A stretch of DNA of 64,000 bases from Candidatus Omnitrophota bacterium. Lineage in GTDB: Bacteria > Omnitrophota > Gorgyraeia > Zapsychrales > Fredricksoniimonadaceae. How positions within the stretch are numbered: the stretch's first letter is position 1; every line of letters starts with the position of its first letter. Location: positions 5,528 through 69,527 of the forward strand of contig CAJARJ010000021.1 of the NCBI GenBank assembly GCA_903944345.1, given 5' to 3'. The notes under the pieces were generated by a model. That model was given only the letters and a program-made list of their open reading frames with translations, searched no databases and was not told the DNA's origin. Positions 1 to 27,344 of the stretch are shown piece after piece. The translations under genes were made by a program, and so were the position numbers.

Positions 1-697
1 ACGCCGCTCCAAGCAGCACGGAAGCTGCCATGGTTAAATCAGGTAGAACACAAAAAGGCATTGCATTCGCCAGAATGGCGCGCAGGCCTTGCTGGTTCAT
101 GTATAAGAGTGTTTTGAGAAGTTTTTGAAAAGCGGGGATTTCAGATCGGGGATCAGTCAAGGGAAGAGCCATTGGCCGGAAGAGCTCCCAGCTGTTAGGA
201 CGGAGAGTTTTTATAAACAGGAAATAGGCCGGAAGTCTGTCCAGCAGAGGTTGGGAGATAACTGTACCAACTCGGAAAATAGGAATAATTGTACGCAGTT
301 GGAAAAGATGGCGAATTTTTTCTGTAAAGGAATGCTGTGCATCATTGGTCAGTTCTTTCTCCGAGTCGGCATCATGGCCTTGCAGAGACACCAGAATGTT
401 GTCGACAGTCCTGGCCAGAACCTGGCGGGTGGCATCCGGAAGAATGGTTGCGTTGGTGTTTAGCAGAACATAAAAGCCCATTTGCTTGGCCAGCGAGAGC
501 ATTTGGAGCAGTTCGGGATGAAGCAGGGGCTCTCCACCGGTAAAGCGAACTGCACGGATGCCGAGAGCGAGTGCTTCGTCAAGAACGGTGCGCACTTGGG
601 CAAAGGAAAGTTCGGTGTGGGCTTGTTTGATGCCGGTGCAATAACGACAGGAAAGGTTGCAGCGGGCGGTGATTTCAAAAACAATCTCGTTGGGCAT
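1..697 (-). CDS. Radical SAM domain protein, partial (C-terminus lies beyond the window start); not in the ORF track because the ORF is open at the window edge
   Basis: Reverse-strand translation from the ATG at ~695-697 reads MPNEIVFEITARCNLSCRYCTG...FTGGEPLLHPEL..., i.e. a CxxxCxxC rSAM cluster motif followed by a GGEP SAM-binding motif. The ORF runs off the window with no stop. Confidence 0.6.
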   Translation of the reverse strand, partial: MPNEIVFEITARCNLSCRYCTGIKQAHTELSFAQVRTVLDEALALGIRAVRFTGGEPLLHPELLQMLSLAKQMGFYVLLNTNATILPDATRQVLARTVDNILVSLQGHDADSEKELTNDAQHSFTEKIRHLFQLRTIIPIFRVGTVISQPLLDRLPAYFLFIKTLRPNSWELFRPMALPLTDPRSEIPAFQKLLKTLLYMNQQGLRAILANAMPFCVLPDLTMAASVLLGAA

Positions 698-1103
698 ATC
701 TATAACAGGCTGTATCCGGGACAATGGATAGGAAGATTTTGCCGGCCAGCCGGGGCACTTTCCCTGCAGACAACAACTGCCGCAGGCCTCAATGGTTCGG
801 GTTGTTTGTTTTCTGAGCCCTGGATAAAGGATGCGGTGTCGGGCATAAGGCAGGAAGCAGAAAGGGACGCCTCGCAATACAAGAAAATGGGTGTCCTTAA
901 CGCTGAGCCAGACAAGTTCCAGTATTTTGTATATGGTTGGAGTGAGTTGGCCGGCATCGACGTCAAGGCAAAGGAAAAGATTCTCGGAGGTGACAAGAAT
1001 ATTATGTCGCTTGAGCAGCTTGGCTAGACTTGGGTAAGAGTTTGGGTAGTTCATGGAAGGAACATTATAACATAGCCGGGGTCGTGTCAAAGGGGCGGGC
1101 ATA

Positions 1104-1856
1104 ATGCAGAGACCAAAAATTTTTATACGAGATGACGATGCGGGAGTTTTGTCGGAGGAGTTCTTGCTGTTTCATCAGATGGTTCGAGATCTTTCCGTCC
1201 CAGTGGTTTATGCCGTCGTTCCCTCTTGGGTTGACAAGAGGTCTGCGGCCTTTTTTCTGTCCGAGAAGAAAAGCGCAGGTTCGAGCTTTGATTTGGTGCA
1301 GCATGGCTGGGCGCACATTAACTATGCAGACAAGAATGACAACAAGTATGAGTTTGGCCCGCGCAGAACATATCAACAGCAAGAGGAAGATATCGGCAGG
1401 GGAAAGGATTTGTTACGGGAGCTGTTTGGGGAGCATTGTGTTCCGGCTTTTGTGCCGCCTTTTCACGGTTTCGACAGCAATACTGTCGGGGTGATCGAGG
1501 CGGCAGCTTTCAAGATATTCTCAGCCGGGCGGAATACCGGTTTTCGCTGGCAGGGGGTGATTGATTTGCCGGCTGGCGTTTATTTGAATGAATATGTATC
1601 GGATGGACGGTCGTTTTGTCTGGATGGTAAGCAGGCGCTTAGACGGTTGTCCTCCGCTCTTAAAACGGCCCCTTTAACCGGATGCCTGTTTCACCACGAA
1701 GCTTTTCAGCAAAAAGAGGGGATTGATCAGATTTATTTTTTTCTGCGGGCAGTTGCCAAGTTGCGCGAGCGCGGAGAGTTGGACATCATTCGGTTTTCCG
1801 ATCTTTGTCGGGAGGGGCGGCTGGCCGCAAGTCCGCAAGCAGTTGATACAAAATAA
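1104..1856 (+). CDS. Hypothetical protein, possibly a divergent polysaccharide-deacetylase-like (NodB/DUF2334-like) enzyme
   Basis: 250 aa. N-terminal FIRDDD and HGWAH motifs recall carbohydrate esterase 4-type deacetylases. I matched no other conserved blocks by eye. Confidence 0.3.
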   Translation: MQRPKIFIRDDDAGVLSEEFLLFHQMVRDLSVPVVYAVVPSWVDKRSAAFFLSEKKSAGSSFDLVQHGWAHINYADKNDNKYEFGPRRTYQQQEEDIGRGKDLLRELFGEHCVPAFVPPFHGFDSNTVGVIEAAAFKIFSAGRNTGFRWQGVIDLPAGVYLNEYVSDGRSFCLDGKQALRRLSSALKTAPLTGCLFHHEAFQQKEGIDQIYFFLRAVAKLRERGELDIIRFSDLCREGRLAASPQAVDTK

Positions 1857-3726
1857 GCTTGCAGCTGGTTTCTCTCCAAAAGAATCCCTGCCGTTTCTGA
1901 AAGTACATTTCCAGATCTGGGTTTCCTGGAAAGGCAATCAGTCTAAGGGGCATAAAATGCTTTAGCGGGTCAAGATAAGGATAGCGGACAGTAAGTCGCT
2001 GCTCTGCGAGTGTTTCGAGAGAGTAGCTTTGGCCTTCTTTGAGGGCGATTACGGATCCTTCGATGTTAAAAGAGTTATCTGCGTTAAGAAAATAGATTTT
2101 GGTGCTTAAGGGCGCATGCAGTAAAAGAGCAAAGAGACGATTAAGATTCGCATCGTACGCAGGATCCAACTCGAAAGAATAGAGAGCGTTGACCGGTAAG
2201 TCAAGCCGGTCGTTTTTATAAAGAGAGAATTGCAGGTCTTTCGAGAAGCGGTTGTTTGAAAGAAAAATCACCGGAGTTTCTGCTGATATTGAGCGAAGGT
2301 CATCAGCTAAAGTCTTCCCCAGTCCGCCGGTTAGCTGATTGATTTTAACAGACAGTTGCCGGACTGTTATAAGGTTTGACGCCTGATCCAACAGACCTAT
2401 AAAGAGTCCCGACAGGACAAATGCAAAGAGTCCGTGTGCGAGTTTGTTTCGGCGAAAAGATAGAGTGTTGTTAAGGAACACCCTGATGTTAAACAGAAGA
2501 ATAATGGTCAGGAACCCCAGGCTGTACATCAGATAGATTTCATTAAGAAATACAATCAGGCAGGGGAGCCAGGAAACAATAAATATAACGGGGAATATCC
2601 GGTGAATCCGGAAAGATGAATAGGCGATGGCCAGAATAAGAAGAGAAGAAATTGCGGCAGAGGCGAATGTTCCAAGTATGGGGGCGTCTGTCAGCAAAAA
2701 GAAAAAACTCCCGACAGCCAGAAGTGTGCCCGTGATTTTCCACGCAAGGGGTTGCCGGTAAAGATTAAAAATATTGGCAAAAACACTTAATATGCCCAAG
2801 AAGACAATAGTTGGAGGCAATGTAAACAGCAAGTGGCTGAAAAGATTGAATTTGAAATTCAGCGTGGCAACTCTTTCCCATATGCGCAGGCTCAGATAGG
2901 TTGAGGTGAATGTCAGGTTGTGATGAGCAATCAAATTAAGCCAGAAAGCCGGAGAAAGCGAGTAGCAGAAAAGTGCAGAAAAAAGAGTGATCAGTCGCCA
3001 GTCTTTTTTGTGGCCAAAACATTCGCAAAGCAGCAGCATAAGGCTGATGATTCCGGTGTATTCTTTATAAAGAGGGCCACATGCGCTAATCAGGAGAATT
3101 GGTGTTAGCCAGACCGGATGAAGTGTTTTTTTAAAGTAAAAATAAGAGATAACGGCAGAGTTGATGGCTAAAGGAACAACCGCGTGAATGCCGATAGTTT
3201 GCCAGGTTGCATTCAGTGAGGGTAAAGAGAACATCATAAAGAATGAGGATGCCAGAGAGAGCCAGAAATCCTTAAGAAAGATGTATGCCAAGGCGAATAA
3301 TGACGCTCCCGCCAGGCCCAGAAAGAACGAATTGATAAGAATCGGAAGCCAGGGCCAGTCATGAATAATGTGTGATGTCAGAACAATAAGTGAGCCAATA
3401 GTAATTTCCAGGGGGCGGTAGAAGTGGGCTTGAATGGGTCTGGAGTTGTGGGTTTCGGGGGTTTCTTTCCATATGGATAATGAATTCTGTGCATAGAATT
3501 CGGAAATACTTCGGATGTCCTGCCGTTTGACAAGGTCTCGGATTTGCAGGATAACACCGGTTTCATTGAAGATGGGTTCAATATTCTTGCGCAGGCCGAA
3601 CGTAATCAGGGTGACTGTAAAAATAATGGCTGAAAAGATGGCAAGAAATAGGGTGCGGGAAGAAGTCGGCATGCTATCCTTTACTGTAGGGCAAAAGCAT
3701 TGGAGCTTGGATTCAAGAGGGTTCAT
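1786..3726 (-). CDS. Large polytopic membrane protein (GT-C / O-antigen-polymerase-like topology); function unknown
   Basis: 646 aa, with one N-terminal TM helix, then a ~70-aa loop, then >=10 hydrophobic helices and a ~200-aa hydrophilic C-terminal domain. Its 3' end overlaps the convergent gene 1104..1856 by ~70 nt. Confidence 0.45.
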   Translation of the reverse strand: MNPLESKLQCFCPTVKDSMPTSSRTLFLAIFSAIIFTVTLITFGLRKNIEPIFNETGVILQIRDLVKRQDIRSISEFYAQNSLSIWKETPETHNSRPIQAHFYRPLEITIGSLIVLTSHIIHDWPWLPILINSFFLGLAGASLFALAYIFLKDFWLSLASSFFMMFSLPSLNATWQTIGIHAVVPLAINSAVISYFYFKKTLHPVWLTPILLISACGPLYKEYTGIISLMLLLCECFGHKKDWRLITLFSALFCYSLSPAFWLNLIAHHNLTFTSTYLSLRIWERVATLNFKFNLFSHLLFTLPPTIVFLGILSVFANIFNLYRQPLAWKITGTLLAVGSFFFLLTDAPILGTFASAAISSLLILAIAYSSFRIHRIFPVIFIVSWLPCLIVFLNEIYLMYSLGFLTIILLFNIRVFLNNTLSFRRNKLAHGLFAFVLSGLFIGLLDQASNLITVRQLSVKINQLTGGLGKTLADDLRSISAETPVIFLSNNRFSKDLQFSLYKNDRLDLPVNALYSFELDPAYDANLNRLFALLLHAPLSTKIYFLNADNSFNIEGSVIALKEGQSYSLETLAEQRLTVRYPYLDPLKHFMPLRLIAFPGNPDLEMYFQKRQGFFWRETSCKLILYQLLADLRPAAPPDKDRKTE

Positions 3727-3807: not shown

Positions 3808-4827
3808 ATGCATCAAGATCGCGGGTTGAGTGGCGAATCGCGGCGTTTTAGAAAGTGGCTTAAAGATATGGGAAAACGGCTTCAAGCAGGGAAAGTTGAG
3901 CGGCCATCAATTCTGGTTGTCGGTTGCGGGGCTTTGGGCACGGCCTGCCTGTTTCATTTGCGAAAAATAGCACAAGTATTCGGGTATGATTGTGACCGAG
4001 CCAGGAGTGAGGAGCTTTCCCGTGCTGGCGCGGGATTTCTAGGTGCCGGACGGGTCAGGCCGGTTGTGTTTAATGTCGCAGCAACCATGGAATGTTATCG
4101 AGGCAAAGTATTTGACGGTGTAATTTTCGCGACCAAATGCCGGGGGCTCCGCCCTGCGGTCCGTGTTTTTTCAGCATCAGGACGTGCCACAAGGGTTTTG
4201 TTCTTGCAGAACGGAGGAGATGATCTGCTTTGGGCCAAGTCCCTTCTAAGAGGGAGCAGGATTTGCCGGGGAGTAACCACAATGGCGGTCAGCTTGCAAG
4301 AGAGAAGCCGGGTTCGTCTTTATACAGCCGGAGAAACATTTCTGGGATCAATTGACAGGCAGAGGGAGGGTGCGCAATGGTTTGCTCATGTTTTTGCTGC
4401 TGCCGGATTGAATGTGCACCTGGTTAAGAATATTGCAGGAGCGGTATGGGCGAAGCTGATATTTAATGCGGTTATGAATCCGCTGCCGGTTTTGTGTTCG
4501 CAGAGCTATGCGGTTCTTCATCGGGATCGTTTATTGTATGCTTTGGCCAGGGATGCGATTAGAGAAGGAGTTGCTGTTGCGCGCAAGGCGAAAATTTGTC
4601 TGGCGTTTGATCCGCTGGCAAAATTGCGCGCGGTTCGTGAAGGAAGATTGAACACGGATAATTATTTTGGATCTATGTACGCGGATGCGACCATGGGTCG
4701 GGCAACAGAAATTGAAGAACTCACCGGATTGTTGGTGCGTCAGGCAAAGAGGCTTGGGGTGCCGGTTCCCCGGCTGGATACAATCTATGCTTTGACTCGG
4801 GCCAGACTTGAGAAAAAAGATGGATGA
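3808..4827 (+). CDS. Ketopantoate reductase (PanE/ApbA) family NAD(P)-dependent oxidoreductase
   Basis: Rossmann motif ILVVGCGALG near the N-terminus; KLIFNAVMNPL and SMYADATMGRATEIEELTG blocks typical of the 2-dehydropantoate 2-reductase family. The true start may be the internal M at ~3868. Confidence 0.55.
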   Translation: MHQDRGLSGESRRFRKWLKDMGKRLQAGKVERPSILVVGCGALGTACLFHLRKIAQVFGYDCDRARSEELSRAGAGFLGAGRVRPVVFNVAATMECYRGKVFDGVIFATKCRGLRPAVRVFSASGRATRVLFLQNGGDDLLWAKSLLRGSRICRGVTTMAVSLQERSRVRLYTAGETFLGSIDRQREGAQWFAHVFAAAGLNVHLVKNIAGAVWAKLIFNAVMNPLPVLCSQSYAVLHRDRLLYALARDAIREGVAVARKAKICLAFDPLAKLRAVREGRLNTDNYFGSMYADATMGRATEIEELTGLLVRQAKRLGVPVPRLDTIYALTRARLEKKDG

Positions 4828-5998
4828 AAATATTCTTCGACAAATGACAGGTTTGCTGCGCGGGTTTGCAAAATATGACCAGCGTTGGCAGCTTGACGGA
4901 GCCCTGAGAAGTTATGAACAGATCCGGAAGCTTCCGGTCATGTCACGGGAAGATCTTTTTTCCCATGTTCTTAAGTATGGGCTGAAGAATGCCAGTAATA
5001 TTTCTGCGACATCGGGTTCTACGTCTTGCAGTGTGTTGATCGGACATAGTCTGGTGGCTTATCGTGCGCATTTAGAGCGGTTGGTGCGTCTTTATAAAAC
5101 TTTGCCTGTCGCGCGGGGCTCGTTGTGTCTGAATATGTGCTCGTATGCACTTAATGGCGGCGGAAGACTGATGGAGGCGGGATATAAGGGGGCAGGATAC
5201 AGGGTGGTTGCGCTTGGTCCGCTTGATATGGAGTTGAAGGCGGATGAATTGCGGAGGCTGGTGCGCTGCCTGCGTCCAGCAATGGTCAATGCTTATGCAA
5301 ATCAACTTTATGGATTATTTTCGGCCATTGGCCTGGACAATCACGGGATCAGGCTGTGCGTGGTTAATGGCGAACCCTTGCTGCGAAATTACAAGAAAAC
5401 AATTGAGCGTTCTGCCGGGGTTGAGGTCTTTAATCATTACGGGGCCATGGAAATCTCAGGATTGGCTCTAGCCCGACGTTCAGGTGATGTGTTTATGCGG
5501 GTTGAGCCGTACGGGCTTTTGCTGGAGGTTCTTAAGGATAACGGACAATCGGGGTTATCTGGAAGAGGGGCGCTGCTGGTTACAGATCTTTTTAATCGCA
5601 GTATGCCGGTCATTCGCTATCAAATTGGTGATCGGGTTGATCTGGTGCGAAGAGAAGATGGATTCTATATCAAGGTTCTTGGGCGTCAGAACGGGTCTTT
5701 TCTTTTTGACGGAGAGGTTTATGCCACGCAAGAGCTGGAAAGTGCGGTCGCAGAAGTTCTGGAGCATTGCGAGTATTATTTTGTGATCCGAAAGTCGGAG
5801 GACACGGGGAAAGACGCCATGGAGCTAAGGATAGTTGGAAGACAAGACAAAGGGCTTCTTGGCCGGCTGGAAAAGGTCATGATTGAGCGTTTTCGCTTTG
5901 GTCGGGCTGTGCGCGTGCTTGGTGTTTGTGCAGCCGTCCCGCGTACGATTACGGGGAAAATTCGCCGGATAATGGATTTACGGGAAAAAGATATATGA
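4808..5998 (+). CDS. PaaK/F390-synthetase-like adenylate-forming enzyme (ANL superfamily)
   Basis: AMP-binding P-loop-like motif ATSGSTS; C-terminal PRTITGKIRR block typical of phenylacetate-CoA ligase / CapK-like adenylating enzymes. Its stop overlaps the next start (ATGA). Confidence 0.55.
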   Translation: MRKKMDENILRQMTGLLRGFAKYDQRWQLDGALRSYEQIRKLPVMSREDLFSHVLKYGLKNASNISATSGSTSCSVLIGHSLVAYRAHLERLVRLYKTLPVARGSLCLNMCSYALNGGGRLMEAGYKGAGYRVVALGPLDMELKADELRRLVRCLRPAMVNAYANQLYGLFSAIGLDNHGIRLCVVNGEPLLRNYKKTIERSAGVEVFNHYGAMEISGLALARRSGDVFMRVEPYGLLLEVLKDNGQSGLSGRGALLVTDLFNRSMPVIRYQIGDRVDLVRREDGFYIKVLGRQNGSFLFDGEVYATQELESAVAEVLEHCEYYFVIRKSEDTGKDAMELRIVGRQDKGLLGRLEKVMIERFRFGRAVRVLGVCAAVPRTITGKIRRIMDLREKDI

Positions 5999-6996
5999 TC
6001 GCAGTGCATGCGCTCTTTATATATTTGACAGGACGTTGTCCGCTAAACTGTACCTATTGTTATTTGCGCAGACGTTCTGTGCGGGATTTATCCTGGCCGA
6101 CCGTTGTTCGAGTTCTGGATAGTATATCCAGAGATCTGGGGCTACCCCGGAAAATTGTTATCAGCGGCGGGGAGCCTTTTTTATGCTACCCAATGCTCAG
6201 AAAGCTTGCTCTGGAGGTGCGGCGGCGTTTTTCCTGGTTGCCTTTATCGGTGCAGAGCAACGGCTTGTTGCTGGACAAAAACAGGATCTCTTTCCTGAGG
6301 GCTGTGCAGGCCGGACTGGAAGTAGGGATAGATGGCAAAGAAGAGACTACGTTACGGCATCGTCGGGGACTTACCGGCAGTATTTATAACCGCCTTCTCG
6401 GAAATATTCGTGCTGCTGTCCGTTCAGGACTGTCGGTCAGTTGTACAATGACGGTTCATCCGGATCAGGTGGAGCATATGGAAGAGAATTTTATTTTTTT
6501 GAAATCCTTAGAATTGCGGTCAATTGACATCACCCCGGCCGCGTTTATGCTTTGGACGGACGCCTCGGTACGGGATTTCCGCAGGAATTACAGCCAGATT
6601 CTCCAGGGACAGTCAGGGCAAGGAAGGGTTCTGGTCGCGGAAGATAAGAATCTTTTTGGTGAAGCTTTCTTGGATCTTAGCGTCTACCCCGACGGAAGCG
6701 TGCTCTGTGGTGATGCCTATTCTTGTCTACCAGCCGGGGTCAAACGGGCCAGAAGCTTGGTTCTGCCATCGGGTCAGCTTGAAAAGAAACGGTTAAATTT
6801 TTTTGTCCGGCAGTATGCATCGCTTTGGAGGTCTGGGAGTTCTTGCAGTTACAGAGATTATGTCCGCAGGAGTTTCGAGATTGTGGATCGTTTGGCCGGA
6901 GGTGCTCTTGATGCGGGTCGGCTTAATGAAATGATGCGTTTTATAGGTGGGGCGAATTTGAGGTTGGTTTCAGCTGAAAGAATTTGTCCGGAATAA
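5995..6996 (+). CDS. Radical SAM protein; paralog of 22139..23152
   Basis: CPLNCTYC (CxxxCxxC) at the N-terminus when started at the internal ATG at 5995, which overlaps the upstream stop. GGEPFL SAM-binding motif; LSVQSNGL block shared with the 22139 gene. Confidence 0.8.
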   Translation: MIAVHALFIYLTGRCPLNCTYCYLRRRSVRDLSWPTVVRVLDSISRDLGLPRKIVISGGEPFLCYPMLRKLALEVRRRFSWLPLSVQSNGLLLDKNRISFLRAVQAGLEVGIDGKEETTLRHRRGLTGSIYNRLLGNIRAAVRSGLSVSCTMTVHPDQVEHMEENFIFLKSLELRSIDITPAAFMLWTDASVRDFRRNYSQILQGQSGQGRVLVAEDKNLFGEAFLDLSVYPDGSVLCGDAYSCLPAGVKRARSLVLPSGQLEKKRLNFFVRQYASLWRSGSSCSYRDYVRRSFEIVDRLAGGALDAGRLNEMMRFIGGANLRLVSAERICPE

Positions 6997-7687: not shown

Positions 7688-7702
7688 GAAGGAAATTATA
7701 TC

Positions 7703-8416
7703 ATGCTTGCAGCGGTTGCCGCGCTGAAAAATGTGTTACAGGGTTGCATGCCTTGCGTAACGAGCAGACGCCGGATAGCCATCCTTTTTACGGGCGGACT
7801 GGATTCTACGGTACTAGCGGCTCTTGCTGCTCACCAGCGGCCTGTTTTGGTCTTTGGGGTCGTACTTGATCGGGATTGCCGGGTTTATAACGCCCGGTCT
7901 ATTCTGTATTCGCGGCGTATCGCCGCTATTCTGGGACTTACGTTTAAAACAATCGGGATAAGTCAGCGGGATTATCATGACGGAATAAGGGCGATGTTAT
8001 CAGCGGGCGTATATTCAAAAGACAGAGATTTGCCTGCGGCGGCTTTCCTTGTCAAAGCCCTACGAGCTCAGGGGGTGGGAGGGGTGGTGAGCGGTATGGG
8101 GAGTAATGAGCTTTTCTCTGCCAGTAAAAGAACGTTATCGATGATTCCAGAACTGCAGGCAGCTTACAGTGAACATCGCCTGCTGGGTCGCGCAGAAAAA
8201 ATTATCTTTCGAGCGCCTTTTCTTGAGGAGCCAGTCATAAAGGTTGTGCGTGGACTTGTGCGCTCGGGGCATGCGCGTACAGACGTTCTGGGAGCGCTTC
8301 TGGCCGGTTATCCGGATGTCTGCCGGCTGATGAAAAAGAGAGTGTCCGGACATTCTATGGTGCCTAAAAGATTCTTGCCGGTTCGGATGACAGTCGAACC
8401 AGAAAAGGGTGTATGA
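7703..8416 (+). CDS. Asparagine-synthetase-like PP-loop domain protein, short form
   Basis: AILFTGGLDSTVLA PP-loop and VSGMGSNELF block; 237 aa. It diverges from 6941..7687 with only ~15 nt between the annotated starts. Confidence 0.5.
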   Translation: MLAAVAALKNVLQGCMPCVTSRRRIAILFTGGLDSTVLAALAAHQRPVLVFGVVLDRDCRVYNARSILYSRRIAAILGLTFKTIGISQRDYHDGIRAMLSAGVYSKDRDLPAAAFLVKALRAQGVGGVVSGMGSNELFSASKRTLSMIPELQAAYSEHRLLGRAEKIIFRAPFLEEPVIKVVRGLVRSGHARTDVLGALLAGYPDVCRLMKKRVSGHSMVPKRFLPVRMTVEPEKGV

Positions 8417-12237: not shown

Positions 12238-12408
12238 AACCCGGCTAACTGGAGCATGAGAGGAATAGATATTCGTTATTGTCTGAAATGGTTATATTTA
12301 TAGCATTTCTTGCCTGGGAGCCAGCAAATGTATAGTATTCTTTCAGGAAAGGAGAATGGAAAGCCTTTTCTGTTTTGTCTCTGAGCAGCCAACATTGAGT
12401 GGTCTTGC

Positions 12409-12437
12409 TTGACAGCCTTTCTTGTTGAGTGTTAAAC
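12409..12437 (+). promoter_or_regulatory. Candidate sigma70-like promoter for the repeat-protein genes
   Basis: TTGACA (12409-12414), 17-nt spacer, TTAAAC (12432-12437); the Shine-Dalgarno AAGAGGGG sits ~5 nt upstream of the ATG at 12457. Confidence 0.3.
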
Positions 12438-12456
12438 TTAATCAGAAAGAGGGGTT

Positions 12457-16916: not shown

Positions 16917-16932
16917 CAAAGCGAGAGGATAT

Positions 16933-17355: not shown

Positions 17356-17426
17356 CAAGGCGAGAGAGATTGGAGTTTTGGTCAATAAACAGGCGTATTT
17401 TTTGACCATCAGCCAAAGGTTCTCGG

Positions 17427-20668: not shown

Positions 20669-22155
20669 TCAGATTGGCTGTTGACAAAAAAGTTTCATTG
20701 TCCTCTCTGTGCCCGAAACAGGATTTTTTCGAGGTTCTCAATGGAGCCGGTATCGCGGCTTTTGATGAGCGCGGTTTTTTTAATCGTGTTTATGCGCGGG
20801 AGGCCCTGGAGCTTTATCAGCGGCACGAATTGGGGGCTCTCAGGCAGATAGCCAGCCGGGGGGCAGTGCTTGTTTGTGATGAGGTTCGACAGAGACTGTT
20901 TCTTGTGGCAGACAGCGCCGGGCATTCGACTTTTTATTATCTGTTGCGGCAGGGAGAGCTGATTTTTTCCAGTCGGCTTCAGGAACTGGATGAGTATTTT
21001 CGTTTTGACTTGAGTGAACGCTCTACCGATGAATATCTGGCCTGTGGTTTCATAAGTTCTCCGTTGACCGTTTTTGATGGTGTAGGAAAACTTCCTCCCG
21101 GAGGATATTTATTGCTTGAAAATGGCCGGGTTCAGGTTTCTGTTTGTCGAAAGACAAAGATTCCTGCCAGCGATAAAGTATCGGATAACTATCAACGAGA
21201 GCTTGAGGCTGCTTTTGAGAGTTGCCTGGCTCGAACGGCGGATGCTCCGTCCGGGTTGATGCTCAGCGGTGGTTACGATTCTTCTCTTTTAGGGGAGCTT
21301 CTATTGCGCCGTTACGGTCGGCTGCGGACCTGGGTCGTTGATATGATGGGGTATAATGCGGCAACTGTCCGTCAAGCCCAGGAAATGTCGCGCATTCTGG
21401 GGACAGACCATTCTTGTATTCCGGTGAGTGCCCGTGATTATATGGGATATTTCAGAAAGGCGCTCGGATTGGTTGAGGAACCGCTGCTTGACCTGGATTT
21501 TCCGGTTATTCGTCAGGCGGTGCTGGCGATAGGGAACAAGGCCCAATATGTTTGGCATGGATTTGGCAGTGACGAGGTTTTGGGAGAAAGGGTTATTGAT
21601 TTCAAGGGGGCGCTTACTCTTTTTGCCGCACAAAAAGGGAGGTCATCCTGGAAAGGGAAGATATCTGTGCGTCAGATCGGGCAGGCTTTTCTTGCCACCA
21701 AAGTTCCCCAGGAATTGCGGGCGCATTATCGTTTATGCGAAGCAAGCGGAACTTGCCTGGTTTTTCCGTTTTTTGAACCGGAACTGATTAGTGTGGCAGC
21801 CCGGATGCCAATTAATCTGATGAAAAATAAACGGCTTCTACGAGGGATGTCTTCCCGTCTTCATCAGCTTCTGCCTGTGCAGCCAAGAGAGGAGCGGGGG
21901 CAGATGCCGGCGCTGATCAAGCATGTGCTGATTGAAGGGCACAAGGAGTCCTTGCTGGCGGACAGTTTTCTGGCAGTTTTTATAAAGAAGAACGGCGCTT
22001 CTGCAATTTTTGAGCGCAAGAGTGAAGATTTGCTTTTACGGATGATAGTTTTTCTTGTCTGGAAGCAGGAAAGAGATCGTCGCTTGTCGCTGGTTTTTTT
22101 TGACCCGCGGAGTTCGGGGGCCAGCAGGGGAGAAATAAGTGTTGCCCGCGATTGA
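20650..22155 (+). CDS. Asparagine synthetase (AsnB)-like amidotransferase homolog, full length
   Basis: 501 aa; PP-loop LMLSGGYDSSLLGELL at ~residue 205; HGFGSDEVLGE block. The N-terminus MQGGC is not a canonical Cys-2 Ntn glutaminase start, so it may be a non-glutaminase family member as in lasso-peptide-cyclase-type AsnB homologs. Confidence 0.6.
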   Translation: MQGGCVIRLAVDKKVSLSSLCPKQDFFEVLNGAGIAAFDERGFFNRVYAREALELYQRHELGALRQIASRGAVLVCDEVRQRLFLVADSAGHSTFYYLLRQGELIFSSRLQELDEYFRFDLSERSTDEYLACGFISSPLTVFDGVGKLPPGGYLLLENGRVQVSVCRKTKIPASDKVSDNYQRELEAAFESCLARTADAPSGLMLSGGYDSSLLGELLLRRYGRLRTWVVDMMGYNAATVRQAQEMSRILGTDHSCIPVSARDYMGYFRKALGLVEEPLLDLDFPVIRQAVLAIGNKAQYVWHGFGSDEVLGERVIDFKGALTLFAAQKGRSSWKGKISVRQIGQAFLATKVPQELRAHYRLCEASGTCLVFPFFEPELISVAARMPINLMKNKRLLRGMSSRLHQLLPVQPREERGQMPALIKHVLIEGHKESLLADSFLAVFIKKNGASAIFERKSEDLLLRMIVFLVWKQERDRRLSLVFFDPRSSGASRGEISVARD

Positions 22156-23152
22156 TCATGTCTGGATATTCATTACCGGCCGGTGTAATGTGCGTTGTGA
22201 GCATTGTTTTTTTGCACACAAATCGGAGCGCCTGCGTTTGTCAAGTCGTTCGCAGGACGCTCTGTTTCGCTTTCTGTCTGCTGCCGGCAAGAAACAATTC
22301 ATTATCTCGGGAGGTGAGCCGTTTATGGTATGGCCGGCCACACGCGCGCTGCTACTGCGGATCAGGCAGGCGTATCCGCAGGCGTATTTGTCTGTCCAGT
22401 CTAACGGGTTAATGATGAAGCCGGGACATTTGGTTACGCTTAAATCAATGCGGGCGAATCTGGAGCTTGGCATAGATGGTGATGAGGCGGCGGTGGCCGC
22501 CAGTCGGCGGGGGTTGCCGAGGGGCGGCTTTCAGAGGTTATGCGCATCTTTGTCAGCTGCGCGGACGGCAGGGGTTGGTCTGAGCACAACCATGACAGTC
22601 ACTCCGCAAAATGTGGCGAATTTATCGGATAATTTTATGGCGTTGCTTGGCTTGCGCGCGCGCGCGATTGAGATTCATCCGGCTTTTATGGCGCAGTGGC
22701 GGCGGGCAGAAAGCAGGCTTTTTTTGCAGGGATACCGTCGCGCCCTTGCCAGCGAACTACGAATGGGAGAGCGGGGACTGATTAGCAGGGAATACAGCCT
22801 GCCAGCCAAAGGGGTTTGGGATATGGTTATTCTTCCTGACGGGAAGGTGCTTGCGAACTGGACCTTTTTGTCATTCCCGGAGCATGTGCGTGAACAATTT
22901 GTGGTGATGGATTTATCAAAGAGGGATGGAGAATTCTTGCCGGCGGCGAAGAGCTATTTTTCCGCCTTGCGCAAGTTTCTCGGGCAAGGTTCTGCTCCGG
23001 TTTCGTATCGCCGTTTAAGTAATTTTAATGCCTCTCTGGCCATTTCTGCCTGGGGGAATCCGCAGTCCGGACGATGTTTTAAGGAGTATGTCCGCTTGTG
23101 CGATGAGATTGAGCAGATTGATCTTGCAACCATAAGGAGACGGCCCGCATGA
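22139..23152 (+). CDS. Radical SAM protein (paralog of 5995..6996)
   Basis: ITGRCNVRCEHC cluster motif; SGGEPFM and LSVQSNGL blocks. Confidence 0.8.
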   Translation: MLPAIDHVWIFITGRCNVRCEHCFFAHKSERLRLSSRSQDALFRFLSAAGKKQFIISGGEPFMVWPATRALLLRIRQAYPQAYLSVQSNGLMMKPGHLVTLKSMRANLELGIDGDEAAVAASRRGLPRGGFQRLCASLSAARTAGVGLSTTMTVTPQNVANLSDNFMALLGLRARAIEIHPAFMAQWRRAESRLFLQGYRRALASELRMGERGLISREYSLPAKGVWDMVILPDGKVLANWTFLSFPEHVREQFVVMDLSKRDGEFLPAAKSYFSALRKFLGQGSAPVSYRRLSNFNASLAISAWGNPQSGRCFKEYVRLCDEIEQIDLATIRRRPA

Positions 23153-24261
23153 TTCGCTATGAGAGTGTGTTTGTGGAGCAGGTTCTGGCTAAAGAGTACG
23201 CAGTGCTGATGCAGGCACTTCTTAAGAATATACAAGGGTTAAACGATATAAAACCTCTTATTCGGGATTTCGAGCAGGAGTTTGCGCAATATATCGGCGT
23301 CAGGCATGCTCTGGCCATCAATTCAGGAAGCGATGGTTTGCGTCTGGTTTTACGGGCGGCCGGAGTGCGTCCGGGTGACGAGGTGATTATTCCCGATCTG
23401 ACCTATCAGGCGGTGGCCCTGGCCGTGGTTTACAGTGGTGCCCGTCCGGTCATAGCGGATGCGTGCTCAGACGATCTAAATATTAGTGCCGCAGATGTGG
23501 AGAGACTTGTAACGCCTCGCACGCGGGCGATTATTGCAGCACATATGTTTGGCCGGGCCTGCAATCTGGACGCTTTACAGGACATTTGTCGCCGCCGGGG
23601 GATTGTTTTGATCGAGGATGTGTGTCAGGCGGAAAGTTCGACTTATAGAGGCAAGATGTTGGGGAGTTTTGGTGAGTTGGCAGTTTTTTCGTTCTCCTAT
23701 TACAAGCCGTTGTCCTCCTGTGGAGGCGGTGGCGGAATGGTGGCGTTTAACCGGGAGGAATTTGGTTCGATTGCAGACTGGCAGAATGACTGGCAGGACA
23801 AGCCGGAGTTGTTGACTAACGGGCAGCGTTTTGCGCCGCTGTCCTTTATGGATCTGGTGGTGCTCAAAGTCAAGTTTTCCCATCTGAAAAAGATTGTCGA
23901 TTCGCGCAAGAAAATCAAGGGGATTTACGAGCGAACCTTGAAAGATGTTCCAGGGCTGGAGCTGTATATTGATCCTCCCGCGACGGATTCGGTTCCGCAA
24001 AACTTTGTAATTGCTTGCGAATGCCGTGATGAGCTTATGCGTTATCTTTTTGCGAAGGATATTATGGTGCAAAAACCGTATATTCCTTTGCATCTTATGT
24101 CAGCCTACCGGACTTTTTCAGGCTCGGATTATCCGGTCAGTGACAGGTATTATCAGAGGGCGCTGCACCTTCCATTGTATTCGTTCATGAGCGAGGAGAA
24201 AGCGCTGCGGGTGGTGGCTGTCTGTCGGGCGTTTTTTGGCGCAAAGGCTGGTCAGAAATGA
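23149..24261 (+). CDS. DegT/DnrJ/EryC1/StrS-family PLP-dependent aminotransferase
   Basis: FSFSYYKPLSSCGGGGGMV block, the family's SFHxxKxxxxGEGG-like PLP-lysine region; N-terminal LAINSGSDGL; overall length and order of motifs match the family. Confidence 0.7.
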   Translation: MIRYESVFVEQVLAKEYAVLMQALLKNIQGLNDIKPLIRDFEQEFAQYIGVRHALAINSGSDGLRLVLRAAGVRPGDEVIIPDLTYQAVALAVVYSGARPVIADACSDDLNISAADVERLVTPRTRAIIAAHMFGRACNLDALQDICRRRGIVLIEDVCQAESSTYRGKMLGSFGELAVFSFSYYKPLSSCGGGGGMVAFNREEFGSIADWQNDWQDKPELLTNGQRFAPLSFMDLVVLKVKFSHLKKIVDSRKKIKGIYERTLKDVPGLELYIDPPATDSVPQNFVIACECRDELMRYLFAKDIMVQKPYIPLHLMSAYRTFSGSDYPVSDRYYQRALHLPLYSFMSEEKALRVVAVCRAFFGAKAGQK

Positions 24262-25376
24262 AGGATTTGCGGGGACGGGATCTGTTGCGGTTACGGGGGG
24301 TGGCGGCGGGACACCCCTTGATCGGTCCACGTTCGGTTAACATTCATTTGACCAATGTTTGCAATCTTGCCTGTCGTTTTTGCTGGTACCATTCTCCTTT
24401 GGTGACTTTTGAGGAGAAAAAGCAAGAGCTGGACATTGCGGTGTTCAAGCGGGTTATTGATGACTGTGCCGCCATGTCAGTAGACGCCGTTGATCTGGAG
24501 GGAGGGGAAGTGGTTTGCTATTCACACGCTGAGGAGGCTTTCCGCTATGCCTCCCGGTCAGGGGTAGCTTTGCATGCCTATACCAATCTCGCCTATGGAC
24601 GCAGGCCCTTGGCTTATATCGCGCTGGCGGATCGATTGAATGTTAATTTCTCAGCGGTGAATCGCGAGTCTTATCGGAAGATGCACGGCGCGGATCATTT
24701 TGATCAGGTGGTGGAGAATATTCGCATCTTGACAAGTCTGCATGCCAAAAAGAAGAAGCCGCGTATCTGGTTGACATTTATTATTAACGAAAATAATTTC
24801 CGGGATATCGAACTTTTTCTGGCTTTGGCGGACAGACTGGGTGTGGAGCATGTATTTTTTCGTCTGTTTGAGGCTACGCTTGAGATGAAATCCCTGGTGT
24901 TCAGCAAAGCATCGGCGCGGGAGTTGGGACCGCTGCTGCTTCGTCTTCTGGGGAGTTCATATAAAATTCCCAATAATCTGGCAGAAATCTCTGCAGTAGT
25001 CAACAATGGGCAGTTTCTGAAAAATATTGTCGATATTCCGCGAACGGCACATAATAACGACCGTTTCTTTTATTATCATAACCTGCGTTCTGCCACCACG
25101 CGCTGTTATACAGGCTGGTTTTTCTCTCTTATAGACGAAAAGGGTCGGGTGATTGCTCCCTGCGACAACATAGGCGTTTGTATTGCGGGTAATGTTTATA
25201 AGGATTCGTTTAGGGATATCTGGTATTCTTCTGAAAAATTCTGCCGTATTCGTCAGGAAGCCCTGCACTGTATTGATACCCGTAAGCGCAAATGGAAAGA
25301 ATGCCGTTATTGCGGTCACGCCGTGTTTAATCAGGAGATGGATGACTTTATTGCGCAAAGAAGGGGCACGTCATGA
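24258..25376 (+). CDS. Radical SAM / SPASM-domain protein
   Basis: HLTNVCNLACRFCWY; C-terminal CYTGWFF...APCDN...CIAGN...CRYCGH Cys pattern. Overlaps its neighbours by 4 nt. Confidence 0.8.
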   Translation: MKDLRGRDLLRLRGVAAGHPLIGPRSVNIHLTNVCNLACRFCWYHSPLVTFEEKKQELDIAVFKRVIDDCAAMSVDAVDLEGGEVVCYSHAEEAFRYASRSGVALHAYTNLAYGRRPLAYIALADRLNVNFSAVNRESYRKMHGADHFDQVVENIRILTSLHAKKKKPRIWLTFIINENNFRDIELFLALADRLGVEHVFFRLFEATLEMKSLVFSKASARELGPLLLRLLGSSYKIPNNLAEISAVVNNGQFLKNIVDIPRTAHNNDRFFYYHNLRSATTRCYTGWFFSLIDEKGRVIAPCDNIGVCIAGNVYKDSFRDIWYSSEKFCRIRQEALHCIDTRKRKWKECRYCGHAVFNQEMDDFIAQRRGTS

Positions 25377-26350
25377 TTCTTGACGCTGCCGAAACGAGAA
25401 AAAGATTTTTGCTGCGCATGGCAGGCGTGCGCGATGGCAAGGCCTATATCGGTCCGGAGATTGTGCATTTGCATATGACCACCCGCTGTAATCTTTCTTG
25501 CGCCTATTGTTCGTATCACCCGCCGGGATATAAAATCGGTCCGGATCGCCCGATGGATTTTTCGTTGCCGCTTTTTTTGCGCCTGATCGATGAAGCCGTC
25601 AAGTTGCGGTCGAACGCGGTGTATTTGTCCGGGGAGGGTGAGCCGACCATGCATCCACATTTTCGAGAGATGATTTCCGCGCTGGAGAAGGCACCGATCG
25701 AGACGACTTTGTTTACAAATGCGACTTATGATCCCCGCCTTTCAGAGGAGTTGGTCAAGGCGGATCGGCTGATTGTTAATTTAAGTGCTGCTAATGCGAA
25801 GAGTTATCTTGAGATGCAGGGTCGGGATTTCTTTGAACGGGTGCTGGAGAATTTACGGATTCTGGTGCATTTACGCGATACGCAAAAGCCCGGCTTGAGG
25901 GTGGAGATTTCATTTATTTCCAACCGCAAGAATGCAGGAGAGCTTCAAGAGCTCCAGAGCCTGGGAAAGCGGCTCGGGGTTTGCGCTGTTAATGATATTC
26001 GGATGCTCCCGACACCGTACAGCGGGGAGCTTGGCCTTGATGTTGACCAGGAGCAGGAGTCTGTCCGGCCCAGGACGGCGTTTCCTTTGTGTTTTAACGG
26101 GTGGTTCTATTTTGTAGTTTCGGTCGATGGCAAAGTCAGTCTGTGTTGTTCGATCGACCGGATGGTGAAAGCTGATTTTCGCAAATCGTCGCTGGTCGAG
26201 ATCTGGAATTCGAAAGAATTCCAGGCCATGCGGGCGGGGGGAACCAGAGGAGTCTTTCATCAGGTTTTTCCGGAATGTCGAAATTGTTTTGCGGATGGGC
26301 GCAATCGCTCGGTTGCCAGAAACCTCGGGATTTTACCTGTATATGGATAA
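25373..26350 (+). CDS. Radical SAM / SPASM-domain protein
   Basis: HMTTRCNLSCAYCSY; SGEGEPTM SAM-binding block; C-terminal CFNGWFY...SLCCS...CRNC Cys pattern. Confidence 0.8.
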   Translation: MILDAAETRKRFLLRMAGVRDGKAYIGPEIVHLHMTTRCNLSCAYCSYHPPGYKIGPDRPMDFSLPLFLRLIDEAVKLRSNAVYLSGEGEPTMHPHFREMISALEKAPIETTLFTNATYDPRLSEELVKADRLIVNLSAANAKSYLEMQGRDFFERVLENLRILVHLRDTQKPGLRVEISFISNRKNAGELQELQSLGKRLGVCAVNDIRMLPTPYSGELGLDVDQEQESVRPRTAFPLCFNGWFYFVVSVDGKVSLCCSIDRMVKADFRKSSLVEIWNSKEFQAMRAGGTRGVFHQVFPECRNCFADGRNRSVARNLGILPVYG

Positions 26351-27344
26351 ACTGCAGCTTGACGGCATAACGATCGAGATTACTAACCATTGTCAGCTCA
26401 AATGTGCGATATGCGGTATCGGGGGCGAGGTTTCGCGCCAGCAGATTGCGGCGGATGATTTTGTGTTGATGATGGATCGTTTGCAGGAGCGCTTTGACCT
26501 GCAGTGGGTTTCCGTTACGGGAGGCGAGCCCTTTCTGCATCCGCAGCTGCGGGAAATCCTGAGATATCTGGCGCGGTTAAAATTGCAAAGAAGGCTGGAG
26601 TCTTTCGGTCTTTATACCAACGGAGTGGCAACCCAAAAAATTCAGACTCTGTTGGCACAGGATCGCAAGTTTCTGTCCGGCATGAGGATTGGTGTCAGCC
26701 TGGATGGGTTGCAGCGGGCGCATGACCGCAGGCGGGGCCGGGGGAGTTATTGTAAAACGATGGCGACCTTAAACTGGTTGTCGCGAGAATGTGCCGGTGT
26801 TTATGATCTGGAAGTCAAGTTTACTGTCGGGACAGATAATGTTGGCGAAATGCTTCATGTTTATCGCCTGGCAAATGCTCTTGGGGCCAGGTTTTCTCCC
26901 AAACTTCTGGAGAGCGGCGTGGGTGCTTATTATCATCGCCATGAAGATGGCTCAGGTCCGCTCGTGCTTCCCTGGGGCGACGAAGAGTGTTTGACTCAAA
27001 TTCGTAGTGTTATGCGTGAGGACATCGAGTCGCGCCGCAAGGCGGTGGATCTTAAGGCACTCAAGGTTTTGTTGTGCTTGGTGCGTGATGGAGAGAGGAT
27101 TATACGTCGTTGCCGGACACCGGAACGCTGTCTGTTTGTGACTTCTTGCGGAAAGGTGTATCCATGTCTGTATATGGCACCGGCGGGGACGATTTATTCG
27201 TCAGATTTTCCCGGCGAAGATTTTTTTAAGGAACGTCAAAAGCAGATTGCGACAGGGAAGAATGGAAAGTGTTCGCGCTGTTTTGCCTATCATGGTTTTA
27301 TGAAAGATTTTAATTTTGATCCTGATTTGGGCAATCTGCTTTAG
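26343..27344 (+). CDS. Radical SAM / SPASM-domain protein
   Basis: Start at the internal ATG at 26343, which overlaps the upstream stop by 8 nt. EITNHCQLKCAICGI; TGGEPFLH; C-terminal CLFVTSCGKVYPC...CSRCFAYHG. Confidence 0.8.
   Translation: MDKLQLDGITIEITNHCQLKCAICGIGGEVSRQQIAADDFVLMMDRLQERFDLQWVSVTGGEPFLHPQLREILRYLARLKLQRRLESFGLYTNGVATQKIQTLLAQDRKFLSGMRIGVSLDGLQRAHDRRRGRGSYCKTMATLNWLSRECAGVYDLEVKFTVGTDNVGEMLHVYRLANALGARFSPKLLESGVGAYYHRHEDGSGPLVLPWGDEECLTQIRSVMREDIESRRKAVDLKALKVLLCLVRDGERIIRRCRTPERCLFVTSCGKVYPCLYMAPAGTIYSSDFPGEDFFKERQKQIATGKNGKCSRCFAYHGFMKDFNFDPDLGNLL

Follow-up and report, generated by a model that had tools for sequence, protein, structure and literature searches.

The closest described relatives of the locus reported here are the His-Xaa-Ser (Hxs) systems, whose families were defined in silico by Haft and Basu (TIGR03976-03979) and which are represented in NCBIfam also by the variants HxsA3 (NF038309) and HxsC4 (NF038332). 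In the HXS system of Escherichia coli, processing that depends on HxsB, HxsC and HxsD gives rise to a +8 Da modification at the last HxS repeat of HxsA, and 99.7% of HXS systems are found in Pseudomonadota (Li et al., Nat Commun 2026, PMC13128918). We report the analysis of a 64,000-nucleotide stretch of DNA (hereafter the window) from a Candidatus Omnitrophota bacterium (contig CAJARJ010000021.1, positions 5,528 to 69,527), which carries an island rich in radical S-adenosylmethionine (rSAM) genes. Judging by sequence similarity, the centre of this island is an Omnitrophota variant, of the HxsA3 type, of the Hxs system, present as two paralogous cassettes of the form HxsD-(HxsC)-HxsB-HxsA3.

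We consider it probable that the whole island is an enlarged and duplicated HxsA3-type His-Xaa-Ser maturation system acting on three small precursors. Its gene content and paralogy, the co-localisation of its genes across a clade of related loci, purifying selection and operon-like packing are demonstrated below; the island is real, non-random, conserved and selectively maintained. The preliminary description of the window saw no characterised pathway with this composition, which is true for the enlarged composition only, since the Hxs centre is a named system that has been partly characterised since 2026; its interpretation, partly right, overlooked the Hxs identity, the three precursor genes and two secreted proteins with N-x-T repeats. 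In the literature we found no paper that names HxsA3 or HxsC4 and none on rSAM-rich Hxs islands in Omnitrophota. Models for HxsA3 and HxsC4 exist in NCBIfam, so that curators have already seen the variant. Orphan clusters rich in rSAM genes are common in uncultured anaerobes.

Hxs cassettes, precursors and their conservation

The source contig (L001; other L-numbers denote related loci from public assemblies) was recovered by an exact-sequence look-up, with 11.8 kb identical, and includes 8.9 kb 5' of the window. There it carries the second cassette, made up of HxsD2, an open reading frame (ORF) of 78 amino acids (aa), HxsB2, a 99-aa HxsA3-like gene and the full 466-aa rSAM gene G01. The cluster reaches past the window start, as the preliminary description had supposed, by about 2.75 kb to a point directly after glnS, and the island spans some 31.5 kb to the end of a gene for a GT28-type glycosyltransferase (GT) at 28,728. 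The gene order is D-C-B-A-A in the window and D-x-B-A upstream, the two cassettes having a single HxsC-like gene between them.

HxsB1 matches its NCBIfam model over the full length at a score just below the cut-off and HxsB2 scores above it (Table 1); both NCBI and JGI annotate the protein encoded at 15092-16501 as HxsB. The HxsC-like protein scores 131.4 bits with HxsC4 (NF038332, cut-off 500) and 95.5 bits with HxsC (TIGR03977, cut-off 267.9), and the HxsD copies score 35.2 (HxsD1) and 26.5 bits with TIGR03976, both below the cut-off of 50. HxsC4/HxsC, HxsD and HxsA3 are the top NCBIfam families for their genes; the scores lie below the cut-offs, and we therefore regard these proteins as divergent relatives. 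The Pfam family PF27806 (HxsD) is on record for the upstream HxsD2 and for homologs in related loci, and HxsD1 has no Pfam match, the model being apparently missing from the Pfam copy used.

We gathered 45 sequences of the HxsA3 type, 39 of them full-length, and aligned 17. These precursors share a basic N-region with a leader motif, about 15 residues of weak hydrophobicity, an AxA-like site and a core rich in His, Asn and Ser. In the 17-sequence alignment the leader motif (K/R)DE(D/E)G(F/Y)V(S/T)KExILK(V/I)GL is near-invariant and its Gly invariant. The likeness of SKExILK to a twin-arginine motif, with K-E in place of R-R, is a curiosity and not evidence. The cores are about 35-90 residues long, with some 4.8 His each and, in most, one Cys; the motif counts per core are 2.2 for H-x-N, 2.2 for H-x-S and 0.03 for H-x-T, and the C-terminus is H-x-S-Y in 35 of the 39 full-length sequences. 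All three precursors of the island end in this way and have one conserved Cys in the core. Within this family the cores of HxsA3a, which contains AAHSSHASHSS and ends in HDSY, and of HxsA3b are unusually long. Another HxsA type, of 262-272 aa, is found on viral-classed IMG/VR contigs (L091-L094, 12177-12995), with the same leader layout as in Omnitrophota, here DFLYEEEGNIPRNKLL, a hydrophobic (h-) region and AFA/GHRSHSSH, where '/' marks the presumed cleavage site; its HxS array is much longer than in Omnitrophota, and these loci have two rSAM genes only.

The secreted proteins G12 and G13, whose genes lie directly 3' of that for a GT-C glycosyltransferase, form a second class of candidate substrates or partners. 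They belong to an unnamed secreted family with the motif (I/L)T(I/L)TT(Y/F)YPxPxGxY after the signal peptide, variable C-terminal parts and a Cys usually near the end. In 15 other loci, some from clades with 37% HxsB identity, members of this TTYYP-motif family are encoded immediately 5' of HxsD or HxsB, and a 289-aa paralog (P0164) is encoded elsewhere in the host genome. A homology search with G13 returned weak repeat-driven matches and one paralog from the same genome, and yielded neither a name nor a domain.

The 5' third of the island is found in a sister species (L090), which is collinear over 13.8 kb at 84% nucleotide identity. All ten genes compared between the two have ratios of nonsynonymous to synonymous substitution (dN/dS) of 0.004-0.18, indicating purifying selection, and these include the 99-aa precursor, the 78-aa ORF, the membrane protein G03 (0.18) and the DUF2334 protein (0.15). 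The sister species also has G03 and, of the AsnB-like pair, the first gene, inside which its contig stops. Furthermore, a distant locus (L006, HxsB about 57% identical) occupies the same position, after RNase Y-YmdB-PilZ-gltX...glnS, which argues for vertical inheritance. Relatives of HxsB (47-60% identity) and of IlvD (67-81%) are nearly all annotated as Candidatus Omnitrophica/Omnitrophota, the island matches its flanks in both GC content and GC skew, and Pfam scans of the window revealed no mobility genes. In the sister species, Bro-N and helix-turn-helix genes 5' of glnS (L090 628-4384) are possibly what is left of a prophage close to the boundary of the island. The glnS-linked locus L006, which is likewise without an A24-like gene, has a Peptidase_U32-family gene among its rSAM genes (14388-15281); members of the U32 family include O2-independent Fe-S hydroxylases.

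rSAM genes, internal duplication and related loci

The rSAM genes were detected from the ORF list with Pfam Radical_SAM, a check for the CxxxCxxC motif and a hidden Markov model (HMM) of the rSAM core built from the island. All ten genes listed in the preliminary description are real: each has the CxxxCxxC motif and is recovered by the rSAM-core HMM, and all have a Pfam Radical_SAM match (Table 1) except that at 19289-20668, which is sub-threshold in Pfam (23.3 bits, cut-off 29.5) and scores E=1e-20 with the HMM. The figure of at least eleven given there is too high for the window, which holds ten, and is reached once HxsB2 (L001 6805-8235), 0.7-2.1 kb upstream of it, is counted. Ten rSAM genes among about 28 correspond to a binomial P of ~5e-9 at a generous background of 3%, and elsewhere in the window (36.7 kb) the same HMM finds none. 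Similarities to MoaA, PqqE, NirJ/Ahb, NrdG, viperin, anSME and others amount to 30-130 bits against NCBIfam equivalog cut-offs of 131-855; judged by these scores, no rSAM protein of the island is a housekeeping enzyme. The alternative of housekeeping enzymes with unrelated neighbours does not hold, all scores being below the curated cut-offs and the neighbours recurring across genomes.

The finer labels needed some revision. The two proteins called "B12" rSAMs do have cores resembling those of AprD4, OxsB and PhpK, but neither matches a B12-binding Pfam domain (PF02310 matches neither 9233-10660 nor 19289-20668); a family member in the related locus L005 has PF02310 on record, and its family HMM matches the first copy, G10, at 8e-28. 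The "SPASM" label stands for the genes at 24258 and 25373, is weak for 15092 and was dropped for 26343. The partner annotations were borne out at superfamily level (three AsnB-like, PanE-like, PaaK-like, DegT, GT-C, GT28-type, DUF2334 and two DUF3419-like proteins), and we too found no regulator, peptidase or ABC exporter in the island.

Two parallel sets of genes that have diverged from each other make up the island, half A extending from the upstream HxsD2 to 12237 and half B from 12457 to 28728. Each half has HxsD, HxsB, one or more HxsA3 precursors, one DUF3419-like protein, one class-B-like and one PapB-like rSAM and one or more AsnB-like proteins, and the identities between halves are 57% for HxsD, 59% for HxsB, 34-37% for HxsA3, 34% for the DUF3419-like proteins, 29% for the class-B-like rSAMs and 34% for the PapB-like rSAMs. 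In addition there are local duplications (G07/G08, G12/G13, G25/G26, and G17/G18, the latter being HxsA3a/b). By these sequence comparisons an old duplication of a multi-gene module, together with the local duplications, accounts for much of the rSAM density. The genes from 7703 to 27344 are packed as in an operon, overlapping or lying less than 75 nucleotides (nt) apart except across a single gap of 220 nt (12237-12457). This gap holds, at 12409-12438, the strongest promoter-like match of the + strand and the only such site in an intergenic gap; the match is statistically not meaningful alone, and a promoter and terminator scan gave counts no higher than in shuffled sequence.

About 86 loci with relatives of this HxsB were gathered from public assemblies, and the 28 of at least 12 kb were analysed by family clustering, with our own ORF calls and the rSAM HMM. 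In the 10 kb on each side of HxsB these have 2-8 rSAM genes (median 5), and control loci with distant-clade HxsB (29-34% identity, IMG/VR contigs) have 1-3 (median 2); high rSAM density is therefore a trait of this HxsB clade. The related loci form a graded series from a minimal cassette with two rSAMs to at least eight, and the window is the most extreme case seen in the clade. A scan of GTDB genomes with back-translated HxsB patterns gave one distant Eubacterium match only, the patterns having missed the clade.

The usual order in related loci is (secreted TTYYP-motif protein) - HxsD - ORF of about 75 aa - (HxsC) - HxsB - HxsA3 - secreted protein of about 260 aa - GT28-type GT - G01-type rSAM on the opposite strand - A24-like membrane protein on the opposite strand - variable modules. 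Among the 28 loci, homologs of the G01-type rSAM, the most conserved partner in the clade after HxsB, occur in 23, of HxsD in 20, of the GT28-type GT, usually directly after HxsA3, in 17, of HxsC in 15 and of DegT in seven; DUF2334 homologs occur in 7-9 related loci (7/28 in the family clustering). The pair of DUF3419-like protein and B12-type rSAM recurs in L021, L022 and L063, and the PanE and PaaK-like pair in L022 and L090 and, together with a homolog of the AsnB-like protein at 20650-22155, in L089, where the PaaK-like homolog has a weak PF00501 match. Several loci carry SPASM-type and PapB-like rSAMs. Very large fused rSAM proteins (708-1424 aa) adjoin HxsB in L052, L079, L048 and L038.

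Table 1. Genes of the island in window coordinates, with features 5' of the window and in related loci given by locus number
Feature	Position	Strand	Evidence
HxsB2	L001 6805-8235, 5' of window		TIGR03978 381.3 bits, above cut-off 370
Third precursor, 99 aa	L001 8201-8500, 5' of window		NF038309 23 bits (cut-off 65)
G01 rSAM, 3' two-thirds of 466-aa gene	1..697 (full: L001 8599-9999)	-	Pfam Radical_SAM 60 bits, at 2-697; CxxxCxxC at residue 148
DUF2334/polysaccharide-deacetylase-like	1104..1856	+	Pfam DUF2334 39.7, Polysacc_deac_1 23.2 bits
G03 polytopic membrane protein, 628-646 aa, soluble C-terminal domain	1786..3726	-	82% identity in sister species
PanE/ApbA-like NAD(P)H 2-ketoacid reductase	3808..4827	+	Pfam ApbA, ApbA_C
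PaaK-like adenylate-forming enzyme	4820..5998	+	NCBIfam DVU_1553-family and PaaK ~48-50 bits, far under cut-offs
G06 rSAM, PapB-like	5995..6996	+	Pfam Radical_SAM 65.9 bits, at 5926/5995-6996; top NCBIfam PapB, 78 bits (cut-off 340); 34% identity to G23
G07 AsnB-like PP-loop ATP-pyrophosphatase domain protein, 248 aa	6941..7687	-	Asn_synthase 41.8, NAD_synthase 22.5 bits; weak LarE-like
G08 AsnB-like PP-loop protein, 237 aa	7703..8416	+	Asn_synthase 44.6 bits; 30% identity to 6941-7687
G09 DUF3419/BtaA-like putative SAM-dependent transferase, copy 1	8413..9246	+	34% identity to 18373-19296, E=1e-44; no Pfam match
G10 class-B-like ("B12-type") rSAM, copy 1	9233..10660	+	Pfam Radical_SAM 46.8 bits; nearest structures AprD4 6fd2 (8e-6), OxsB
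GT-C fold (PMT_2) membrane glycosyltransferase	10645..12237	+	PMT_2 30.4 bits (cut-off 26.1)
G12 secreted protein, signal peptide	12457..13005	+	N-terminal TTFYPxPxGxF, LNVTG repeats; 12 N-x-S/T sequons, 4.2 expected
G13 second TTFYP/LNVTG secreted protein	13090..13644	+	60% identity to G12; 12 sequons, 5.6 expected
HxsD1	13654..14091	+	TIGR03976, below cut-off; 57% identity to HxsD2
HxsC-like rSAM	14122..15111	+	Pfam Radical_SAM; full-length NCBIfam HxsC4 match
HxsB1 rSAM/SPASM maturase	15092..16501	+	Pfam Radical_SAM; TIGR03978 368.9 bits (cut-off 370), full-length; weak SPASM
HxsA3a precursor, 143 aa	16485..16916	+	NF038309 39.9 bits (cut-off 65); leader RDEEGFVSKETIL, h-region
HxsA3b precursor, 140 aa	16933..17355	+	NF038309 32.4 bits; 47% identity to HxsA3a; C-terminus HSSY
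G19, 323 aa, directly 3' of precursors	17427..18398	+	one homolog, L063
G20 DUF3419/BtaA-like, copy 2	18373..19296	+	DUF3419 21.4 bits (cut-off 28.2); 50% identity to L063 homolog
G21 class-B-like rSAM, copy 2	19289..20668	+	CxxxCxxC at residue 171; 29% identity to G10 over 411 aa
AsnB-like amidotransferase, 501 aa, degenerate GATase and synthetase domains	20650..22155	+	Asn_synthase 57.3, GATase_7 23.3 bits; TIGR01536 88.7 bits (cut-off 267)
G23 rSAM, PapB-like, G06 paralog	22139..23152	+	Pfam Radical_SAM 50.3 bits
DegT/DnrJ/EryC1-type sugar aminotransferase	23149..24261	+	Pfam 262 bits; PseC, WecE-like NCBIfam under cut-offs
G25 rSAM/SPASM	24258..25376	+	Radical_SAM 53.1, SPASM 25.7 bits
G26 rSAM/SPASM	25373..26350	+	Radical_SAM 53.6, SPASM 47.6 bits; 37% identity to L006 homolog
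G27 rSAM, SPASM match absent	26343..27344	+	Radical_SAM 47.9 bits, at 26289/26343-27344; CxxxCxxC
GT28-type (GT-B) glycosyltransferase, island 3' end	27382..28728	-	Glyco_tran_28_C 36.5 bits
TTYYP-family examples	L013 1054-1443; L016 8013-8465; L068 8822-9460; and 12 more loci
A24-like examples	L013 8010-8873; L021 14601-15494; and 15 more loci	-	alignment A2

A number of searches with individual proteins gave nothing further. G01 reaches no NCBIfam cut-off, G03 and G19 have no match in Pfam, NCBIfam or the PDB, and a PDB sequence search with G20 returned nothing informative. G03 was considered as a second GT-C akin to that at 10645-12237 and rejected, similarity between the two being undetectable, and the 181-aa ORF at 482-1027 (+), antisense to the G01 gene, has no family match and is probably spurious.

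Proposed maturation, export and role

In the scheme that we favour, in which the chemistry of every step, the route of export and the biological role are inferred, HxsD, HxsC and the two HxsB proteins would bind the leader in the cytoplasm and covalently modify an H-x-S motif, by analogy with HXS of E. coli; we take the C-terminal H-x-S-Y as the likely primary target of HxsB and HxsC because the E. coli modification maps to the last HxS repeat. Eight more rSAM enzymes (the G01 type, two PapB-like, two class-B-like and three SPASM-type, two of these with a SPASM match) would add modifications. Going by the chemistry of their families, each class-B-like rSAM, paired with a DUF3419/BtaA-like SAM enzyme, would alkylate or methylate, the PapB-like and SPASM-type rSAMs would form cross-links, and the three AsnB-like PP-loop enzymes, acting on the peptides as well, would adenylate carboxylates, leading to amidation or to a lactam. 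The DegT, PanE-like, PaaK-like, DUF2334, GT28-type and GT-C proteins would, on the same grounds, build and attach a sugar-like (amino-sugar-like) or acyl group, the sugar-type targets being the peptides and/or the two secreted N-x-T-repeat proteins, and the products would go to the periplasm or envelope. The multi-step anaerobic tailoring proposed in the preliminary description is upheld for a ribosomal product and not supported for a glycan or cyclitol as a stand-alone reading; the sugar-type enzymes may still glycosylate peptide or protein products.

Several observations weigh against this scheme. HxsB2 alone passes its NCBIfam cut-off, with HxsC, HxsD and HxsA3 far under theirs; HxsA3 is without the peptidoglycan-binding domain carried by the characterised HxsA; and the orders D-C-B-A-A and D-x-B-A differ from the D-B-C-A of the characterised HXS. 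An A24-like peptidase, common in related loci (see below), is absent from the window and the 8.9 kb upstream when searched with a family HMM, and the sister species is likewise without it. The putative links between accessory enzymes and peptides are drawn from family-level chemistry only, and single-sequence AlphaFold2 models were unusable, with predicted local distance difference test (pLDDT) scores of 42 for G03 and 35 for G19. Finally, in none of the 28 loci did we find the AsnB-like pair (6941-8416), the GT-C, G03 or the LNVTG-repeat form at a distance of up to 10 kb from HxsB, and some related loci, such as L088, hold the minimal cassette only.

These last points would suit a composite neighbourhood, in which self-contained Hxs cassettes lie beside a pathway unrelated to them, for envelope glycan, lipid or cofactor, to which several of the rSAMs belong: L088 is a minimal Hxs cassette by itself, several accessory families are not found near other HxsB genes, and enzymes of the DegT, PanE, PaaK-like, AsnB, GT and deacetylase types typically occur in clusters for nucleotide sugars and glycans. 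We nevertheless think such an arrangement improbable, given that the same modules adjoin Hxs at HxsB identities of 50-57% (L013, L016, L021, L022, L038, L043, L063, L089), that the whole island is bracketed by the core partners G01 and the GT28-type GT, that 7703-27344 is packed with overlapping stop and start codons and that the duplication of the Hxs genes is matched by that of the accessory genes.

As regards export, the precursor N-terminus can be read in two ways. It may be a Sec-type signal peptide whose extended n-region bears the Hxs recognition motif, and the short h-region, the AxA-like site immediately N-terminal to the His-rich core and the viral-contig HxsA leader (EEEG-NIPRN...AFA/GHRSH), with no Phe at +1 and no Glu at +5, point towards this reading. 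Alternatively, it may be a prepilin-like class III signal cut after the invariant Gly (G/FVSKE, with Glu at +5), a reading that is weaker here because no A24-like gene is present in the window, in the 8.9 kb 5' of it or in the sister species. It takes its interest from the related loci, where an A24-like membrane protein adjoins the G01-type rSAM in 17 of the 21 that bear HxsD. This protein matches PF01478 (Peptidase_A24) in 14 of 15 members, has the preflagellin peptidase FlaK as its only PDB match and both catalytic Asp invariant, and is about 290 aa long with an extra conserved C-terminal membrane domain and a RIPFAP motif. G03 was tried as a substitute A24-like peptidase and rejected (hhalign probability 0.2%).

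Taken further, the prepilin-like signal would make the HxsA3 proteins prepilin- or Flp-like subunits, cleaved by the A24 enzyme and assembled by a machinery like that of type IV pili into a filament with an rSAM-modified, glycosylated and His-rich tail on display at the surface. The recurrent A24 homolog, the invariant Gly with a Glu five residues on and a predicted mature size of about 60 aa, similar to Flp pilins, would all fit, as would one clade (L021 2900-8501; L019, L022, L024, L063) in which genes for two PilB-like ATPases (T2SSE and MshEN), for a PilC-like T2SSF protein and for MshEN proteins that stand alone all lie directly 5' of HxsD. Yet neither A24 nor PilB nor PilC homologs occur in the window or the 8.9 kb upstream; the motif has G at -1 and E at +5 but, as read from the alignment, fails the prepilin pattern PROSITE PS00409 at -2, +2, +3 and +4; the hydrophobic stretch, of about 15 residues and followed by an AxA-like site, resembles that of a Sec signal peptide; and the viral-contig leader has neither the Phe nor the Glu. 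A filament of this kind is in our view a doubtful proposition for the island.

Leader, core and several rSAM/SPASM enzymes are also the typical layout of a ribosomally synthesised and post-translationally modified peptide (RiPP), and the His- and Cys-rich cores, together with PapB, MftC, PqqE and WgkB as the best NCBIfam neighbours of several of the rSAMs, raise the question of whether core peptides are freed as heavily cross-linked, His-rich metallophores or antimicrobials. Against a small secreted product, neither a leader peptidase nor an ABC exporter nor an immunity gene is present in the island, the signal-peptide-like segment of the precursors points to a general export pathway, and all the similarities are far under the family cut-offs; we hold this to be unlikely as well.

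Somewhat less unlikely, though still far from the favoured scheme, is a role in antiphage defence, in which, by analogy with HXS, matured His-rich periplasmic peptides would stop the entry of phage DNA and the extra rSAMs would diversify the effector. HxsB, HxsC and HxsD have their homologs in a system for which antiphage activity has been demonstrated (PMC13128918), the precursors look exported and their cores are variable, as expected in an arms race. However, the cores have few basic residues and no peptidoglycan-binding domain, the position after glnS is a conserved housekeeping one in both L090 and the distant L006, the composition is like that of the flanks with no mobility genes, and this clade is not found on IMG/VR viral contigs, where the distant HxsB loci with two rSAMs are. 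PADLOC 2.0.0 reported generic viperin-like rSAM similarity only; this version predates HXS and is hence uninformative.

The broadest proposal, which we rate as a minor possibility, is that of a vertically inherited, phylum-wide feature of the Omnitrophota envelope serving neither defence nor antibiosis: small His-rich proteins cross-linked or alkylated by up to 11 rSAMs, glycosylated and, in most lineages, cleaved by a dedicated A24-type peptidase, which would be placed with TTYYP proteins on the membrane or on a pilus-like fibre. Within it the trio of rSAM, BtaA-like and AsnB-like proteins would be formally analogous to a diphthamide-type histidine modification. Were this true, metal binding, electron transfer or host attachment would be possible roles in these ultra-small, possibly host-dependent bacteria. 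The candidates for a role are an envelope peptide, defence, a pilin-like fibre and a metallophore, and we know of no cultured, genetically tractable members of the Omnitrophota.

With respect to the favoured maturation system, the sole experimental study of Hxs enzymes gives an undefined +8 Da modification, and the island offers three natural substrates and 11 rSAMs in one operon-like unit, while the graded related loci form a comparative set for matching each enzyme to a modification. The Hxs family reaches well past the Proteobacteria, and its Omnitrophota form looks chromosomal, conserved and not mobile; the defence role seen in E. coli may therefore be neither ancestral nor the only one. 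The recurrent A24-type peptidase, GT-B glycosyltransferase and TTYYP secreted family point to an undescribed envelope or surface structure.

Genomic setting and comparison with known systems

On its 3' side the island is followed in the window by genes for CNNM and ilvD, by glycogen and polyphosphate genes and by nqr. The storage-polymer neighbourhood at 32912-47466 comprises glycogen phosphorylase, branching enzyme, DUF4139/4140, GH57/DUF3536, Ppx/GppA-HD, polyphosphate kinase, a CHAD protein and a metallophosphatase-HD fusion. Beyond it lie two adjacent giant ORFs, at 49395-53663 (1422 aa, no Pfam match) and 53691-57818 (1375 aa, faint PPDK_N only), in keeping with reports of very long proteins in Omnitrophota. 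A double PG_binding_1 protein (57903-58505), rejected as an HxsA-like effector since it has no HxS repeats, precedes an Nqr/Rnf-type operon (58550-63060, to the window end) with NqrA-like, NqrB/RnfD and FMN-binding proteins and two Rnf-Nqr membrane subunits. GC skew is positive in every 2-kb bin of the window (0.09-0.26) and the + strand carries almost all genes, from which it follows that the whole window lies on the leading strand of one replichore. Scans of the window for tRNA and Rfam families gave no matches.

Of the described systems, HXS of E. coli and Klebsiella (HxsD-HxsB-HxsC-HxsA; PMC13128918) shares with the island a homologous HxsB rSAM/SPASM protein, HxsC rSAM and HxsD, and an exported His-Xaa-Ser-repeat substrate that adjoins the enzymes and is presumably modified in the cytoplasm before export. 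It differs in its hosts and in its scale: the substrates of the Omnitrophota island are 99-143 aa long, with H-x-N and H-x-S motifs and an H-x-S-Y end; where the characterised HXS has two rSAMs, the island has two cassettes and eight further rSAMs (11 in total) with about 15 tailoring and envelope genes; and, unlike the mobile context of HXS, its chromosomal position is conserved. The in silico families of Haft and Basu and NCBIfam provide the best models for HxsA3a, HxsA3b, HxsC, HxsD and HxsB of the window, the upstream HxsB2 being the only protein to pass, and there are no curated NCBIfam models for the recurrent partners, namely the G01-type rSAM, the GT28-type GT, the TTYYP secreted protein and the A24-like protein.

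The rSAM/SPASM RiPP systems (PapB ranthipeptides, PqqE, MftC, SCIFF) likewise have a conserved leader and a variable core encoded beside rSAM/SPASM enzymes with N-terminal extensions of about 90 aa, and the invariant C-terminal Tyr of HxsA3 recalls, as we assume, that of MftA. Typical RiPP clusters contain 1-3 rSAMs, as against 11 in the island, which also differs in having no protease or exporter and in the signal-peptide-like segment of its precursors. Flp and type IV prepilins with their A24 peptidases (TadV/FlaK) resemble the related loci, where an A24 homolog with both catalytic Asp accompanies small proteins in which a hydrophobic segment is combined with Gly at -1 and Glu at +5; they differ from the window in its lack of A24, its non-canonical motif and its short hydrophobic segment, and from the A24-like protein in the extra C-terminal domain of the latter.

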